DNA of 6,205 nucleotides from a virus (Duplodnaviria > Heunggongvirae > Uroviricota > Caudoviricetes): IMG/VR virus record IMGVR_UViG_2534681662_000012; one strand, written 5' to 3'. The position numbers were made by a program, and so were the translations under genes. Position 1 is the first letter of the stretch; every line of letters starts with the position of its first letter. Positions 1 through 5,912 of the stretch are shown here, one piece after another. Under the pieces are notes generated by a model that was not told the origin of the DNA, did no database searches, and worked only from the letters and a program-made list of their open reading frames with translations.

Positions 1-181
1 CTGCAATCACCTTTATCGCCAGCCTTCCGGACAGCCTTAATTTCAGCCGCTGCTGGCGAACAATAAGCGCCACAGCCCGGCGATAACGCTTTCCCTCCTC
101 AGAGATAAAATATGTGCTGCCACGGCGTCGCCAGTAGGTGTTCACCGTCGGCGGGTAAGGCAAAACAAACTCTATACGCAT
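1..181 (-). CDS. rusA: RusA-family Holliday junction resolvase, 5' part only (about 60 codons; gene continues past window start)
   Basis: Hand translation of the minus strand from ATG at 181..179 gives MRIEFVLPYPPTVNTYWRRRGSTYFISEEGKRYRRAVALIVRQQRLKLRLSGRLAIKVIA with no stop before position 1. This matches the RusA N-terminal pattern as I remember it (LPxPP-S/T-xNxY..R....-S/T-xEGxxYRxxV). SD AAGAGG (193..188) sits 6 nt upstream of the ATG, immediately after the TAA stop of the upstream ORF (196..194). Not in the ORF track because it has no in-window stop. Confidence 0.75.
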   Translation of the reverse strand, partial: MRIEFVLPYPPTVNTYWRRRGSTYFISEEGKRYRRAVALIVRQQRLKLRLSGRLAIKVIA

Positions 182-193
182 CAGTAACCTCTT

Positions 194-811
194 TTACCCA
201 AGCACGCCAGTTGCAAAGGCGTGATCAAGAAAACGAAAAATTAAATCAACCTGAGAACCATGCATTTCTTCGAACGCCAGCGGATCCGCATGAAGCTCGT
301 TGTGATGCTCCCGACACAGCGGTAGCGTGAAAATATCGTGAGATTTTGTCCCCATTCCGCCCTGACCATGACCAATCAGGTGATGGGGATCGTCGGCTGG
401 CTTACCACAACACGCACACGGCTGTGTCTTCACCCAGCGTGTGTATTTCTCGTTAACCCAGCGGCGACGTTTAGGTCGTTTCATGAAAGATTCCGGAGAC
501 TCCGGATCTACGGCAATGCTGACCACCGTCTTTTCCTGTGGTGCGTTCTGTTGCTGGTGGACGTGAGGCAGCGGCGCAAGATTTTTTGTGCGCTGTTTCA
601 GTATGCTGGTGGCGGTCTGCTCTCCCGGTACGATGTCGCTTTCGCGGTACACCGAGCGGATTTTTTCCGCACGCAAGCCCAGCGAACGACGTAATACCGC
701 TTCCGGTAGCGCGTCCGCCACCTGATTGCGGACCGCCCACCAGGATAATTCAGCCAGAGATAATTCACGCTCCTGCGTACCGCTTATTGCGTGACCGATG
801 ACGTCAATCAT
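194..811 (-). CDS. Cys/His-rich lambdoid-prophage protein, DUF968/YdfU-like C-terminal region (205 aa from the internal ATG)
   Basis: Track ORF 194..1021, trimmed to the internal ATG at 811..809 (MIDVIGHAISGTQERELS...). The upstream 70 codons (MLLVVLGHCLTGCCAILNPASGHTAIII...) are Cys/Thr/Ala-rich, look non-protein-like, and overlap a better frame. The C-terminal block WVKTQPCACCGKPADDPHHLIGHGQGGMGTKSHDIFTLPLCREHHNELH is a Cys/His metal-binding-type motif that I associate with the DUF968 family; this is recollection, not a search result. Stop TAA at 196..194. Confidence 0.6.
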   Translation of the reverse strand: MIDVIGHAISGTQERELSLAELSWWAVRNQVADALPEAVLRRSLGLRAEKIRSVYRESDIVPGEQTATSILKQRTKNLAPLPHVHQQQNAPQEKTVVSIAVDPESPESFMKRPKRRRWVNEKYTRWVKTQPCACCGKPADDPHHLIGHGQGGMGTKSHDIFTLPLCREHHNELHADPLAFEEMHGSQVDLIFRFLDHAFATGVLG

Positions 812-1241
812 CCATGCTGACAGTTTTGATGAGCAAGTTGCCGAGTGATTCGGATGTCTGGTCACGCAGCTGGTTGTCGCAGTGCCAGCACAACACCATT
901 GCGCCGGTACCATATCGGTGAATAACGGTTTCGCTGTGATGATAATCGCCGTGTGGCCACTGGCAGGATTTAATATGGCACAACAGCCAGTCAGACAGTG
1001 CCCCAGCACCACCAGCAGCACGAATCACCCGCTCATCGCTGAAAAATGGCAGTAATGATTTATCCTCCGCCAGCGGCTGGCGAACAGCAGGAACGACTCC
1101 GGACGGCAGACCGCGCATGCTTTTCGGTTCCGGCTCCACCAGAACTCGAGGGTTATGAAATACCTGCATGGATTCACGGCCCGGTTTTAGCACCACCAGC
1201 CCAAGTTCCGGTACCGGAACAGGTCGAAGTAACACCCGCAC
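804..1241 (-). CDS. Hypothetical Cys/His-rich prophage protein (145 aa); possibly the N-terminal part of a split YdfU-like gene
   Basis: Track ORF 804..1241. Start is GTG at 1241..1239, preceded by GGAGG (tctGGAGGtaacGTG on the minus strand) that overlaps the TAA stop of the upstream ORF at 1245..1243. The product ends ...CQWPHGDYHHSETVIHRYGTGAMVLCWHCDNQLRDQTSESLGNLLIKTVSMDD. Its TGA stop (806..804) overlaps the ATG of the next ORF (811..809), giving minus-strand ATGATTGA. Confidence 0.55.
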   Translation of the reverse strand: MRVLLRPVPVPELGLVVLKPGRESMQVFHNPRVLVEPEPKSMRGLPSGVVPAVRQPLAEDKSLLPFFSDERVIRAAGGAGALSDWLLCHIKSCQWPHGDYHHSETVIHRYGTGAMVLCWHCDNQLRDQTSESLGNLLIKTVSMDD

Positions 1242-1242
1242 G

Positions 1243-1521
1243 TTACCTCCAGATGCGTTGCTGGTATGTGCGGGATGAACGCGGTGGGCGTTCGGAGTAA
1301 GGGAGTCTGACTGAGATTATCCAGTGACGGTAGTCGAGGCTAAGAGCTTTCTTAACCTCGTATCCGCGCCTGCGGTAACACTGAATTATCCATTCCGCCT
1401 GCTCTTCAGTGCATGGAGGATGCTGGAACCAGTCTGATTTGAATGCGTGAAAACGCCGTCCGCACCTACTGGCAAAGACGGCAGAATCATTAGAATTGTG
1501 TAATTTGGTATCGTGCGCCAT
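1243..1521 (-). CDS. Small prophage protein (92 aa) in the position rem occupies in Qin-type prophages
   Basis: Track ORF 1243..1650, trimmed to the only internal ATG (1521..1519; MAHDTKLHNSNDSAVFASRCGRRF...). The track start at 1650 would put the hok terminator hairpin (1603..1620) inside the coding region. Upstream SD is weak. Function unknown; the rem analogy is positional only. Confidence 0.45.
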   Translation of the reverse strand: MAHDTKLHNSNDSAVFASRCGRRFHAFKSDWFQHPPCTEEQAEWIIQCYRRRGYEVKKALSLDYRHWIISVRLPYSERPPRSSRTYQQRIWR

Positions 1522-1590
1522 CGGTTGTCTCTGCTGGCGCAGCAGGTGCCAGTTGTTCAGGCTGGCGTGCGAATTGTAAACCAGAATGCC

Positions 1591-1620
1591 AGGAAAAAAC
1601 AAAACCCGCCGAAGCGGGTT
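1591..1620 (-). terminator. Rho-independent terminator downstream of hok
   Basis: Perfect 7-bp stem (1603-1609 aacccgc with 1614-1620 gcgggtt) and a 4-nt loop cgaa. On the minus strand the hairpin is followed by the U-rich tract UUUUGUUUUUUCC (complement of 1591-1602). It lies about 70 nt 3' of the hok stop. Confidence 0.6.
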
Positions 1621-1688
1621 ACGTGCGGGTGCGTTGAGGATGCCTGCCACATAAGAGGTGGCGAGGGATTTCTCCCTCGCCTGGTCTC

Positions 1689-1844
1689 TTACTCCTCAGG
1701 TTCGTAAGCTGTGAAGACAGCGACCTCCGTCTGGCCGGTTCGGATTCGTACCTCGCAGAGGTCTTTCCTCGTTACCAGTGCCGTCACTATGACGGTTAAA
1801 CAGATGACGATCAGGGCGATTAACATCGCCTTTTGCTGCTTCAT
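1689..1844 (-). CDS. hokD: Hok/Gef-family type I toxin, HokD/RelF-like (51 aa)
   Basis: The internal ATG (1844..1842) of track ORF 1689..1901 gives MKQQKAMLIALIVICLTVIVTALVTRKDLCEVRIRTGQTEVAVFTAYEPEE. I recognise this as the Hok family (single TM helix, then the conserved RKDLCEV.IRTGQTEVAVF block) and, from memory, as identical or near-identical to E. coli HokD (RelF). SD AAGGAG sits 9 nt upstream. The 19-codon in-frame N-terminal extension in the track ORF was not adopted. Confidence 0.85.
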   Translation of the reverse strand: MKQQKAMLIALIVICLTVIVTALVTRKDLCEVRIRTGQTEVAVFTAYEPEE

Positions 1845-2116
1845 AGCCTGCTTCTCCTTGCCTTTCGGCACGTAAGAGGCTAACCTACATGTGTCTAGCA
1901 TGAAATTGGCCTCAGATTAATGTTAAGCGTCTTGCAGGACGCGTAATGTTAACTGGGGCTTTTCTCTATCTGCCCTTGGTGTTCATGCCCGAGGCAGATA
2001 GCCTCAAGCACCCGCAGCCATTCTACTTAACTACCGTTACCTCGCCAATATGAAATCAGTCAGAAAGACGATCCATAAGAACAATAGCAAGATTTCTTAA
2101 TGGAGATGGATGTAAG

Positions 2117-3604
2117 CTAAATATTTTGGCTCGGTCTGCTTTCTATTAAATGCAACCTGTATTTTAAAGCATGATGTGTCCTAAACTCATTTTGTAGATT
2201 AATTTTTAAGTTAGGCAAACTACTTACGTATTCCCATCTACCTTGTTTTTTTTGTCCGATAAGTGAGTTATCAAACAGGAAGTTGATATATTGACGTATC
2301 ACCCCATCAGAAATACCTGCAAATTCATTACGGCACTTCTCGGAAAAATCATTAAAATCGAATGTTTCTACTTGGATAGTTTGAAGAACAGTTAGTAAGT
2401 TCTCAATTTCAGGGAATTGGTTGGACCATTCATCAATCACCTCATTGTACACACTTATAGATGCTTCACGGTCAGCTTCATAAAGCTCATTGGAAGTGTA
2501 AAGACCTGAGACATTATTTTTATGACATGCCCTAATTTTGTTGAAGTAGACAATAATATCCCTAGGCCTAAAGAAAGAACGGCGACATATATATTTAAAT
2601 GGAGGAGTCCCCTGCCTAACGAATGAAACCTCAAATACTTTCCCAGATCTGTCCTTTTCGTCATCTAATATGAGATCATTAGGTTTGTATTTCTTTATCC
2701 TCTCATAATACATATCGTTTAGATTATTTTCATTCCATGAGATTATGATAGCACTATCTTGCAATAATTTGTTTTTATCATTGAATTTCAAAGAATGATA
2801 AATATCCGTTCGTAGGAAGGGAATGACTTTTAATTTATCATTGAGGCGTTCATCAGATGCTATGTTTCTACAGACATTTAGCAGATTTATTAAAACCTTA
2901 CTATATTCTTCAATTTGCCCCTCTAGCCAGTTTTCGTCTAATTGGTCAAGGGCGATAATTATTTTTTCATTACCAATGTTATCTTTAAAAATTTTTTCAA
3001 AATACGTAAGCAACGTGAAAGCATTAGCTCTTAGCTTTTGCTTTAGCTGAGCATTCTCAGCAACTTCCTCTAACGAAATTTCACCTGCGTCCAATGATAC
3101 TTCATTAAGACCAGCACTGGGCCCTTTTATGGTTTTTAATCTGGTTATTTTTGAAAACAAAACCTCCCTAAGAGTTGGGTCGGGACTACCAAAGATAGTT
3201 TTGATATAATTATGTGCCCACGTTAGATCTTTGTTTAAAGTCTCTCCAGCATCATTTTTTATTTCAATAAGTTTAGATAATGCCTTAATATAAAAAAGAT
3301 ACATCCAACTTTTTTGATAAGCGGAAAGTTCTCCAGCCATTGCATCCTTGTAAAGTTGATGGGCTGGCCATGGATAGTCACTAAAATTTAGACATACTGA
3401 GTAAAACCCGTTGAGATTGGCTGGGTTTCCTCTTCTAAGGTGTTCATAAATGGCTGTTTTACCAGTACCTTTTCTTCCAAGAACCAACCAAGCCCTACTT
3501 TCAATAATATCCTTTATCGCCGGTAGCTTAAAAAAATAGGTCTGTAAGTCCCGATCTGTTTCTGCTGAAACTTGAAATTCTGGTAGCCAGTCTCTAATGT
3601 CCAC
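2117..3604 (-). CDS. P-loop NTPase, 495 aa, STAND/KAP-like motif pattern; AT-rich horizontally acquired gene; candidate phage-defence/abortive-infection protein
   Basis: Track ORF 2117..3604; an uninterrupted 495-codon frame in an otherwise AT-rich segment. Walker A WLVLGRKGTGKTAIYEHL near residue 40; Walker B-like IIALDQLDENW near residue 220 (hhhhD-x-hDE, as in STAND/NACHT-type NTPases; the roughly 175-aa A-to-B spacing is more like KAP-type). In-frame start is GTG at 3604..3602 with SD AAGAGGA about 4-5 nt upstream. G+C in hand-counted 60-bp lines is about 27-35%, against about 57% in a flanking backbone line. Confidence 0.85.
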   Translation of the reverse strand: MDIRDWLPEFQVSAETDRDLQTYFFKLPAIKDIIESRAWLVLGRKGTGKTAIYEHLRRGNPANLNGFYSVCLNFSDYPWPAHQLYKDAMAGELSAYQKSWMYLFYIKALSKLIEIKNDAGETLNKDLTWAHNYIKTIFGSPDPTLREVLFSKITRLKTIKGPSAGLNEVSLDAGEISLEEVAENAQLKQKLRANAFTLLTYFEKIFKDNIGNEKIIIALDQLDENWLEGQIEEYSKVLINLLNVCRNIASDERLNDKLKVIPFLRTDIYHSLKFNDKNKLLQDSAIIISWNENNLNDMYYERIKKYKPNDLILDDEKDRSGKVFEVSFVRQGTPPFKYICRRSFFRPRDIIVYFNKIRACHKNNVSGLYTSNELYEADREASISVYNEVIDEWSNQFPEIENLLTVLQTIQVETFDFNDFSEKCRNEFAGISDGVIRQYINFLFDNSLIGQKKQGRWEYVSSLPNLKINLQNEFRTHHALKYRLHLIESRPSQNI

Positions 3605-3921
3605 ATTTTCCTCTTTACATTACATTACCTTTATGTTTTTCCAAAATAAATCAAAGTCATATGGCGTATCAAGTTTTTTTGATTATTTATGAGCTCATAC
3701 TCAAAAAAATACTAAATCTAATTTATCTTACGTTAACTAAAGATTTCATATGTTAGTATGCTCAAGCAATGCTACTGCTGGAGTCTGATGATATCCGTTA
3801 TACACTAATTGCCACGCACACAAGCGACATCAGTTCATGGCACAAAGCAGACAACCACGCTACCTCTACCCTATGCCATGAAAATGTCAATTTACATCTT
3901 AACTAATGCACTTTAATCTCG

Positions 3922-4344
3922 TCACTTAAATAGATACCGAACATTTCCCTGATAAAACGACAATATGCGCTGCATAACTTCGCTCTTCTGGCACTCGCGA
4001 CAGATTATGTTTAGACGACTGTCGTAGCGACGTATTTCTCCATCAGGTAGTGACCAGATAAGGTCCGGATCAACCACAGCGGGTTTCTTCACCTTCGCCC
4101 TAGAGAGTTTTTTGCGGGCATTTTGCCAGTCCTTTCGTGCCTGTTCAGACGGGAATAACCCGTAGCCGGAGTTGTATACATAACCACTGGCAACCAGCTC
4201 TCTGGCAAGAATGCTCATCAGATATCTTGTCGCACCTGTTTTAGCTTCCAACTGTCGTAATGTCTCGCGACCGCTCTGGCGCACAAGTTCGACCACCTGC
4301 TCTTTAATTTTTTCCCGCTCTTCCTGTGTAAAAACTTTTGCCAC
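3922..4344 (-). CDS. Hypothetical prophage protein, 140 aa
   Basis: Track ORF 3922..4344. GTG start at 4344..4342 with a strong SD AAGGAGG 4 nt upstream (ttAAGGAGGacttGTG on the minus strand). Backbone-like G+C. The product (MAKVFTQEEREKIKEQVVELVRQSGRETLRQLEAKTGATRYLMSILARELVASGYV...) is basic and could contain an HTH, but I do not recognise a specific family. Confidence 0.65.
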   Translation of the reverse strand: MAKVFTQEEREKIKEQVVELVRQSGRETLRQLEAKTGATRYLMSILARELVASGYVYNSGYGLFPSEQARKDWQNARKKLSRAKVKKPAVVDPDLIWSLPDGEIRRYDSRLNIICRECQKSEVMQRILSFYQGNVRYLFK

Positions 4345-4384
4345 AAGTCCTCCTTAAAATTACCTCATGACCTGAAATCAACAC

Positions 4385-5350
4385 TTATCCCCTGAAACCA
4401 GGCGGAATTTCTGTATCCGGTTCAGAAATATGATTCACACAACGCTGTACAGGTGAACGTCCCAAGCGGATGACCAGTTCGTCCCATTTTTCGCGGAGTT
4501 TTGACGGGCTCATGATGTTTTTTACCCAGAATGGATCTCGCTGTACCCGACCAAACATTTCGCAAATTTGTCTGTGGCTTCTGCCATCCAGCATCCGCAT
4601 TGTGCGCACGTCATTGGCCCAGGCTGTCCAGTTAGGCTCTTTTGGTCGCATGATCTCTCCATCGTCGCTGGCAGCCTGTTCGTAAAGGTTCACGATCCGC
4701 CCCCAAATCCACTGCGCACACGCCAAATCCTCCCTGCTACCCCACTGGCGTTTTTTCGCACTAAACACAACCGCGTCGGGGTTCTGGGTTAAAAAATCCT
4801 GTTCAGCGGTCTGCGGGTCCGGTTGCGAAGCTTCCGGACGAAAAGTGTTTTTATTCTCTGTAGTAATCTCTGTTGTATTCTCTGTAAGATCATCAGGCCA
4901 TTTTGACCCGATGACATTGGGTCGTTTTGAACCAATGGAGCGTTTCATTTTGACCTCTTCCATCGTGTCATTTTGACCTGATGGAGCGGCGCATTTTGAA
5001 CCGATGGATTCGTTCAATTTGCCACCATCTAAAAGCTCGCTCCCATAGTTGATCGTGTAGAAATTGGTCATATCGCGCTTTGATTTATTGAGCTTTTCAC
5101 AACGCAAAAGCCCCAGCGTTTTCAGACTTGCAAACGCGCGCTTTAAAGTTGACTCTGACCAGAATGGGAACTGTTCCAGCCATTGTTCCGTTGTGTTGTA
5201 AATCCAGCGAACACCATCACATTCCATGCCGGAATTGGTATCTCTCAACCAGTAATGCAACTGCTGCAACACAATGGCTTCATTTAAGCCAATCTTCATC
5301 GCAAGCTGTGTGTTTATAACCAGTGGGCGTTCAGCAAAAAGAAGGCTCAT
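4385..5350 (-). CDS. Phage replication initiator (lambda O-like / replisome organiser) with an internal origin
   Basis: Track ORF 4385..5404. The track start at 5404 is TTG with no SD, so I prefer ATG at 5350..5348 (weak GGATGG SD), which overlaps the upstream ORF stop by about 20 nt; the start remains uncertain. The N-terminal region looks like a winged-helix DNA-binding domain; the middle is encoded by iteron repeats (repeated SIGSK / VIGSK peptide); the C-terminal domain is Trp-rich. An internal ori is the hallmark of O-type initiators. Confidence 0.7.
   Translation of the reverse strand: MSLLFAERPLVINTQLAMKIGLNEAIVLQQLHYWLRDTNSGMECDGVRWIYNTTEQWLEQFPFWSESTLKRAFASLKTLGLLRCEKLNKSKRDMTNFYTINYGSELLDGGKLNESIGSKCAAPSGQNDTMEEVKMKRSIGSKRPNVIGSKWPDDLTENTTEITTENKNTFRPEASQPDPQTAEQDFLTQNPDAVVFSAKKRQWGSREDLACAQWIWGRIVNLYEQAASDDGEIMRPKEPNWTAWANDVRTMRMLDGRSHRQICEMFGRVQRDPFWVKNIMSPSKLREKWDELVIRLGRSPVQRCVNHISEPDTEIPPGFRG
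4898..5012. repeat. Iteron array (putative prophage origin of replication) inside the initiator gene, with an adjacent A+T-rich short-repeat tract at 4841-4890
   Basis: Five direct repeats of about 18-20 bp with 23-24 bp periodicity. Plus-strand copies start near 4900 (attttgacccgatga), 4924 (gttttgaaccaatgga), 4948 (cattttgacctcttccatcg, degenerate), 4968 (cattttgacctgatggagcg) and 4992 (cattttgaaccgatggattcg); consensus CATTTTGA(C/A)C.GATGGA. Immediately downstream in gene orientation is the tract 4851-4888 with three copies of tctctgt(a/t) (ttattctctgtag, taatctctgtt, tattctctgtaag). Confidence 0.6.
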
Positions 5351-5852
5351 AATTCCATCCAGCTTTTTGTTGGTATTGCTGTCGATACGCAAGTTTGAAA
5401 GCAATTGCTTTTTCTATAAGTTCGTCAGTTTCACGATCCACTACGGCAGGATCAGCAAAAAGCAGTCCGGACTCCACCACATCGCCATATTCTTTGTTTA
5501 ACCCGGCGATCATGTACGTGATGCTTTTTCCGTCACTAATTTCACGATACAACCTGAAATCATTAATCCGGATAGCCTCCATAATTGCAGGCACTAGCGC
5601 CGTGAACTTTTCACGCTTATCCCTAGTGTCGATAGCCTTCCAGCGTTCGAATATCTTCACTCGATTAACGCCAAGCGCTCGCTGATCAACCGCGCCACCT
5701 TCATCTGTGACACGCTGAACATCGATGTTCGGGCGCTCTTTCAAAGCCCAGAATGCTTCAGTGATTAATATCGTCGCCTGCTCCTGTGTCATTCCTGGTC
5801 GACATATCCAGGCATCCAGAGCCTCACGAGCCTGTTCAGGAGTGATTTTCAT
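5331..5852 (-). CDS. Hypothetical prophage early-region protein, 173 aa
   Basis: Track ORF 5331..5852 with ATG start at 5852..5850 and backbone G+C. The product (MKITPEQAREALDAWICRPGMTQEQATILITEAFWALKERPNIDVQRV...) is not recognised by me. Its start lies 37 bp from the IS1 left end. Confidence 0.65.
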   Translation of the reverse strand: MKITPEQAREALDAWICRPGMTQEQATILITEAFWALKERPNIDVQRVTDEGGAVDQRALGVNRVKIFERWKAIDTRDKREKFTALVPAIMEAIRINDFRLYREISDGKSITYMIAGLNKEYGDVVESGLLFADPAVVDRETDELIEKAIAFKLAYRQQYQQKAGWNYEPSFC

Positions 5853-5889
5853 TGTTCAACCGCCCCGCCCGCTTCGTCTTACGATATTC

Positions 5890-5912
5890 GGTGATGCTGC
5901 CAACTTACTGAT
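5890..5912 (+). repeat. IS1 left terminal inverted repeat (about 23 bp)
   Basis: GGTGATGCTGCCAACTTACTGAT at 5890-5912 matches the IS1 terminal inverted repeat as I recall it. The other end and the target-site duplication lie outside the window. Confidence 0.85.

Follow-up and report, generated by a model that had tools for sequence, protein, structure and literature searches.

Two Single-Base Deletions Divide a YdfU-Type Prophage Gene into Overlapping Reading Frames in a Draft Contig of Escherichia coli 2788150

The Locus and Its Overlapping Reading Frames

The window, that is, the whole stretch of DNA analysed here, is the entire 6205-nt contig AQDT01000037.1 of the draft assembly GCA_000355595.1 of Escherichia coli 2788150. 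At one end it carries the 5' part of rusA (1..181, minus), coding for a Holliday-junction resolvase and cut by the contig end; between rusA on one side and, on the other, hokD together with a conserved 92-aa hypothetical gene (phrog_1212; 1243..1521, minus), in what is the nin region of a lambdoid prophage, two ORFs are found on the same strand and in different frames. The upstream one (1241..804, minus), immediately preceded by the 92-aa gene, extends from GTG 1241..1239 to TGA 806..804 and codes for 145 aa, and the downstream one (811..194, minus) extends from ATG 811..809 to TAA 196..194 and codes for 205 aa; the overlap ATGATTGA (811..804, minus) is common to both. The frame of the downstream ORF remains open beyond ATG 811, as far up as GTG 1021 (275 aa). 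The GGAGG ribosome-binding site of GTG 1241 (1250..1246, minus) overlaps the end of the upstream 92-aa gene, whose stop is at 1245..1243. The same pair was annotated by the depositors as a 143-aa product starting from GTG 1235 (1235..804) and a 205-aa product (811..194, EMW42242.1).

The disrupted gene spans 194..1241 (minus), that is, 1048 nt or 3 x 349 + 1, while its intact homologues measure 1050 nt. The initial annotation had described two same-strand ORFs sharing 804-811, the one ending with the TGA and the other starting with the ATG given above, over a span that is not a multiple of three, and all of these coordinates are confirmed; the length of about 349 aa which it gave for YdfU is also correct, a RefSeq CDS named ydfU and the best intact homologues being 1050 nt long.

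One Gene of the DUF968/YdfU Family

Judged by sequence comparison, the two ORFs are collinear fragments of a single DUF968/YdfU-family gene, 349 codons long when intact. The 205-aa ORF matches Pfam PF06147 (DUF968) with 258.6 bits against a cut-off of 27.8, over profile positions 1-171 of 171, and also matches HNHc_6, weakly, and several HNH PHROGs; the His-Me (HNH) motif CxxC..HH..CxxHH is present in its translation, the residues involved being CACCGKPADDPHHLIGHG...PLCREHHNELH (written out, CACCG...DPHHLIGHG...PLCREHHNELH). The Pfam search with the 145-aa ORF gave no match, and no match to either fragment was found with PADLOC and NCBIfam. Both fragments fall on one and the same profile, phrog_96 ("HNH endonuclease", 334 positions), the upstream ORF at positions 1-138 (E 5.7e-62), followed by the downstream ORF at positions 145-333. 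When the two missing bases described below are restored, a 1050-nt ORF is obtained, the 349-aa product of which aligns without gaps (349/349) with homologues and is 84-96% identical to intact E. coli members; nearly all of the 120 protein-cluster representatives listed are 348-352 aa long, with 100% coverage of the repaired query. The alignment to full-length homologues, which was to establish whether the ORFs are collinear, bears out the core of the initial annotation, namely that a single-ORF YdfU-like gene has been split by a small indel, be it a frameshift pseudogene or a sequencing indel.

Genomes of E. coli carry the homologous DNA as one 1050-nt CDS, annotated as "DUF968 domain-containing protein" and, in some records, as ydfU; a single 1050-nt ORF of this kind occurs in thousands of E. 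coli genomes and phages, and the phage records annotate one gene. The window copy lacks the uninterrupted ORF of the DUF968/YdfU family, two 1-nt deletions having distributed the gene over three frames; fragments collinear with an intact homologue and identifiable indels, as found here, are the marks of a frameshift pseudogene. Six repaired variants (carrying the E or the G allele, and starting at 1241, at 1235, or at the first ATG) were absent from a collection of 15 billion proteins, and these exact look-ups found neither a perfect intact twin nor a re-assembly of strain 2788150.

The intact protein consists of an N-terminal Cys/His-rich module and a C-terminal DUF968 domain resembling His-Me/HNH nucleases. 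The N-terminal module of 133/134 residues defines a narrow enterobacterial family, with 155 representatives in 1.84 billion proteins; stand-alone N-terminal pieces of ~134 aa are grouped in phrog_11007. DUF968 and DUF1364 (YbcO, PDB 3g27) constitute group 7 of the His-Me finger (HNH) superfamily, which in prophages typically adjoins rusA and the gene of the Q antiterminator (PMC5714182); a discussion of recombination-associated HNH nucleases likewise includes DUF968 proteins, which in some cases are fused to recombinases (PMC4118853). The family and the neighbourhood suggest that the intact gene product is a putative nin-region DNA-processing nuclease. Some homologues appear to be larger: P0070-P0072 (607 aa) are apparent fusions of PF27659, DUF968, and PF03589 (Q antiterminator), and P0085 (447 aa) combines RusA and DUF968; these may be real fusions or artefacts of read-through or frameshifting.

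Compared with known systems, the gene is closest to YdfU of the Qin prophage of E. coli K-12 (PF06147, 349 aa), which belongs to the same family, has the same length as the window copy once this is repaired, and occupies the same slot of a lambdoid prophage, between hokD/rem and the rusA or Q genes; unlike YdfU of Qin, the window copy carries two 1-nt deletions and encodes no full-length product. With His-Me group 7, including YbcO of DLP12, the C-terminal fragment shares the CxxC...HH...CxxHH motif, and the RusA/Q neighbours described for that group are also present at the window locus. A difference is that no solved-structure relative of the window protein is detectable by sequence: the search gave none that is relevant, the best match (E = 0.81) being a zinc finger.

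Two Single-Base Losses

Alignment to the intact CDS in NZ_CP148570 displays exactly two 1-nt gaps and no further indel. At the first lesion (841..842, minus) the window reads CTC-GG-CAA, where intact genes have CTC-GGG-CAA or CTC-GAG-CAA; at the second (823..824, minus) it reads AAAA-C-TG, with a single C at 823, where intact genes have AAAA-CC-TG or AAAA-TC-TG. The window sequence at the lesions is, on the minus strand, CTCGGCAAC and AAAACTG; on the plus strand the first lesion appears as GCCGAG (intact counterparts GCCCGAG or GCTCGAG) and the second as CAGTTTT (intact counterparts CAGGTTTT or CAGATTTT), and the lesion-bearing strings of the window are CACTCGGCAACTTGC and CATCAAAACTGTCAGC. 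A distance of 18 nt separates the two lesions, which are found outside the overlap, 13 and 31-38 nt upstream of ATG 811; the expectation that nucleotide alignment would reveal an indel of 1-2 nt near 800-815 is borne out as to the presence of indels and needs correction as to their number and place, the gene having suffered two 1-nt deletions at 823/824 and 841/842.

Both intact alleles of the first site are common in E. coli, with 1,662 records for GAG and 346 for GGG. Among the relatives of the gene, an IMG/VR contig piece (L079) comes closest, with 98.4% identity over window positions 1-1591; it carries GGG and CC at the two sites and shows, over 462-971 and 981-1591, no difference from the window other than the two missing bases. 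The most parsimonious description, as far as these alignments go, is that of two contractions of short homopolymers in the same direction, GGG to GG and CC to C, within 510 nt that are otherwise unchanged.

With the two bases missing, the upstream ORF contains native residues 1-133/134 followed by 11-12 out-of-frame residues (..NLLIKTVSMDD*), and the downstream ORF corresponds to native residues 145-349 and holds the complete DUF968 domain; the ten native residues 135-144, among which A137, Q139, N140, L141, and W144 are invariant, are found in neither ORF. The first loss would shift the frame, and the ribosome would read 11-12 wrong residues before halting at the pre-existing out-of-frame TGA 806..804; the Met codon 811..809, which is in the native C-terminal frame and precedes this TGA by five bases, mimics by coincidence an overlap of the ATGA type. 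The N-terminal fragment would be produced from the normal GGAGG-GTG start, while the fragment with the HNH domain, devoid of a ribosome-binding site, would be produced poorly if at all; neither recoding nor coupling would be at work.

The Overlap and the Case for Recoding or Coupling

Intact genes contain the string ATGATTGAC without change and read it in one frame as W-M-I-D; by comparison with these genes, ATGATTGA is pre-existing coding sequence (Trp-Met-Ile-Asp) with no significance of its own. ATG 811 is the native codon of Met145, a residue which is Ile in the close relative P0020 and which falls outside the invariant columns of a 24-sequence alignment. The anti-SD duplex calculated before ATG 811 amounts to -0.9 kcal/mol, versus -10.6 kcal/mol before GTG 1241, where GGAGG lies seven bases upstream; no X XXY YYZ slippery heptamer was found in the upstream frame and no SD-like stimulator near the overlap. 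By chance alone, an out-of-frame stop is met about 12 codons past a frameshift; the locus has the look of an ATGA-type overlap because a native Met codon happens to precede the out-of-frame TGA.

These observations bear directly on the proposals that the two-frame layout is functional, and translational coupling and programmed frameshifting are effectively excluded. If the gene were functionally split, the N-terminal module and the DUF968/HNH domain would be made as two polypeptides, by termination and reinitiation at ATGATTGA; the presence of a complete Pfam DUF968 domain inside the downstream ORF, an ATG located 5 nt before the upstream stop in a geometry compatible with reinitiation, and the existence of the phrog_11007 stand-alone N-terminal pieces would agree with this, but the chance that it is so is very slight, since the arrangement is conserved in no other sequence searched, intact genes use the overlap string as ordinary coding sequence, relatives have Ile in place of the Met, there is no SD, and ten conserved residues, including the five invariant ones, are lost. 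Moreover, the break falls inside a predicted helix (130-153) and not in a linker, in a low-confidence AlphaFold2 model of the nearest intact homologue (P0034) built from a 24-sequence alignment, the mean pLDDT of which, 48, is too poor for a fold search. The genuine coupled gene pair envisaged by the initial annotation thus finds no support: the overlap is not a boundary in homologues, the layout and the start codon are not conserved, and the upstream gene contains no ribosome-binding site for the second ORF. A more specific version, in which the strain truly has the deletions and makes the Cys/His module and the DUF968 HNH domain as separate yet cooperating polypeptides, the second being translated by reinitiation at ATGATTGA, is slighter still in probability. 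As to programmed ribosomal frameshifting (a +1 event, or two -1 events, restoring the full-length protein), its probability is close to nil: that two overlapping same-strand frames jointly encode a known protein is all that speaks for it, whereas homologues are single in-frame ORFs with no conserved two-frame layout, slippery site and stimulatory element are both missing, the native sequence requires two separate corrections 18 nt apart, and the last sense codon, GAU followed by UGA C, would, from the sequence, offer no cognate +1 re-pairing. The likeness to prfB (+1), dnaX (-1), and coupled pairs with ATGA overlaps is superficial, consisting of overlapping same-strand frames and an ATG near the upstream stop; unlike these systems, the window has no conserved shift site, stimulatory element, SD, or conserved two-frame layout.

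Distribution of the Lesion

The distribution of the lesion was assessed in a set of 5,426 complete E. coli genomes with a 101-nt query spanning both lesions, and by exact-pattern scans, run separately for each deletion, of GTDB species representatives, IMG/VR, and JGI metagenomes. The 101-nt query finds 2,172 E. coli records, not one of them at >=99%, the top matches being all 101/103 with both bases present, and neither deletion gave any match in the three DNA collections; the intact pattern occurs in at least 120 IMG/VR contigs. A two-ORF layout with the ATGA overlap in many genomes, which according to the initial annotation would have indicated a real gene pair, is consequently seen in none of these records or collections. 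In a collection of about 15 billion proteins, the 143-aa product and the 205-aa product both trace to exactly one public contig, AQDT01000037.1. The lesion is private to this one draft record, as expected if it were a consensus error confined to a single deposited sequence. An exact look-up returns three samples with AQDT01000037.1, yet these correspond to one contig and one GenBank accession, and may be mirrors or independent samples; if independent, they would favour a real lesion. No literature was found on strain 2788150, AQDT01, or GCA_000355595.

Disruption of the gene at other places is sporadic. In 126 fetched loci, all of which carry the intact junction pattern or its close homologue, the gene is single, full-length, and in frame in 111, cut by the ends of the locus in 7, and changed in frame in 5; no other E. 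coli-type copy among them is broken at the site of the window. Four of the ~118 IMG/VR copies (L071, L041, L123, and L020) are frame-changed, all in a variable region at residues ~180-260, so that about 3-4% of the other public copies are disrupted. A distant homologue (L006:197-1244, from Logan SRR28345961, 55% identity) is found in three frames, with breaks at residue 134/135 (CTCGGG|A) and near residue 265; breakage may recur at the short G-run of codon 134, or it may simply be sequencing errors that recur there.

The Mosaic Prophage Segment

The surroundings of the gene are a mosaic. At window positions ~998-1890, ETEC E24377A is the one complete genome with 99% identity, and positions 200-461 and 1595-5890 match strains 504838 and 101EVA; in and around the split gene, L079-type sequence (503-971 and 981-1591) is combined with 504838-type sequence (200-461 and 972-980). 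The haplotype has no near-identical complete genome, and the mosaic was not seen intact elsewhere. The interval 972..980 (minus) is a patch of four SNPs, converting LLRHVKS into LLCHIKS, of 504838 type within sequence of L079/E24377A type; it may represent gene conversion over a very short tract, or else betray a chimeric consensus. At 1538-1595, rem (~423 nt in 101EVA and 504838) is replaced by ~56 nt, as in E24377A and Z1322HEC0009, and this is a further mosaic boundary adjoining the split gene. The idea that the deletions mark a recombination junction was rejected, the nearest switch from E24377A/L079 to 504838 sequence lying at 972-997, 130-170 nt away.

The prophage module is present in multiple copies, up to 9 per genome. 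The other end of the contig (5889-6205) is an IS1 end (the N-terminus of insA, 87 aa), 98.4% identical to IS1B of strain 504838; adjoining it is the YdaT-toxin/cro side of the prophage, so that a repeat bounds the contig at this end. Comparison of the window with E. coli 101EVA over 4.3 kb (1595-5890) gives 5 substitutions and a single indel, an A5 to A4 contraction in the hokD terminator. This A4 allele (1601-1605; an A-run on the plus strand and, on the minus strand, the hokD terminator's T-tail) is common, being found at >=99% in 635 E. coli records, and from this frequency the A4/A5 polymorphism is taken as natural variation and no error. The remaining ORFs of the contig are all intact; with these ORFs intact and the A5 to A4 contraction a common natural allele, the suggestion that the contig is generally error-prone was discarded.

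Other features of the segment deserve mention. Between a DUF977 gene and hokD, a 495-aa P-loop ATPase of the Sll1717 family (2117-3604, minus; NCBIfam NF047389, 250.8 bits) is encoded, for which PADLOC gave a weak match only (PDC-M28C, E 4e-5); the prophage may carry it as cargo of an accessory or defence type. The ATPase gene is located in a low-GC island (~2001-4000) with 34-37% GC, compared to 45-56% in the rest of the contig. At least 80% of the window is carried by only 35 of the 5,426 E. coli genomes. A 64/65-aa ORF called by the depositors (1510-1707, plus), antisense to the hokD leader/terminator and also annotated in RefSeq for E24377A (WP_306344597.1), lies over the hok/sok regulatory region and is probably a spurious call.

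Consensus Error or Genuine Pseudogene

That the gene has been broken by a lesion, whether this is an error of the record or a real pseudogene, is almost certain. Concerning its origin, the odds are judged somewhat better than even that the two contractions are consensus errors of a draft assembly in a multi-copy prophage segment; the step from lesion to error, as opposed to mutation, is one that we infer. An error is favoured by the clustering of two indels in 18 nt and the absence of any substitution from the surrounding 510 nt, by the fact that both losses contract short runs, by the lack of an intermediate with one deletion anywhere searched, by the shortness of the contig, which has an IS1 end and a multi-copy prophage module as its limits, and by the mosaic of two prophage types, possibly arising from reads of two co-resident copies, a setting in which errors of the consensus come about; against it counts the fact that runs of 2-3 bases are no classic hotspots of sequencing error. 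It was also considered whether the location of the deletions in polymorphic columns might prove a consensus derived from a collapsed repeat, but this evidence is weak, given that ~25% of the columns of the block vary in a sample chosen with a pattern covering the lesion site, and that the contracted runs owe their existence to the G and C alleles.

A genuine, strain-specific pseudogene, in which real slipped-strand events or one complex event inactivated a dispensable prophage gene of strain 2788150, is a serious possibility, to which we assign somewhat less than an even chance. The anatomy of the lesion is the same as it would be for an error; prophage genes often decay, and 4 of the ~118 IMG/VR copies, as well as the distant L006, are frame-changed, L006 with a break in this same short run of G; no sign of poor sequence quality is seen in the remainder of the contig; and, there being no near-identical complete genome, a mutation restricted to the lineage could escape the collections searched. 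On the other hand, two independent indels within 18 nt, with 510 flanking nt unsubstituted with respect to L079, are improbable as separate mutations, neither deletion was found alone in E. coli genomes, GTDB, IMG/VR, or JGI metagenomes, and both truncated products occur on a single contig among ~15 billion proteins.

Implications

The case is of an ordinary and already-known kind, in which two single-base deletions, private to one draft record, break a known prophage gene, and amounts to either an assembly error or a recent pseudogene; both prophage gene copies disrupted by frameshifts and small indel errors in draft assemblies are routine. For annotation, it follows that EMW42242.1 and its 143-aa neighbour are to be regarded not as two proteins but as pieces of a single ydfU-type gene, either a pseudogene or an error, and that the apparent "ATGA-type overlap" of the window should not be listed among cases of translational coupling. 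Real deletions would add one more decayed gene to those known in prophages. Only the unlikely functional split, if true, would inform on the uncharacterised nuclease-like YdfU/DUF968 family; in particular, a split into separate yet cooperating parts would amount to a natural "domain-splitting" experiment on an uncharacterised nin-region nuclease.
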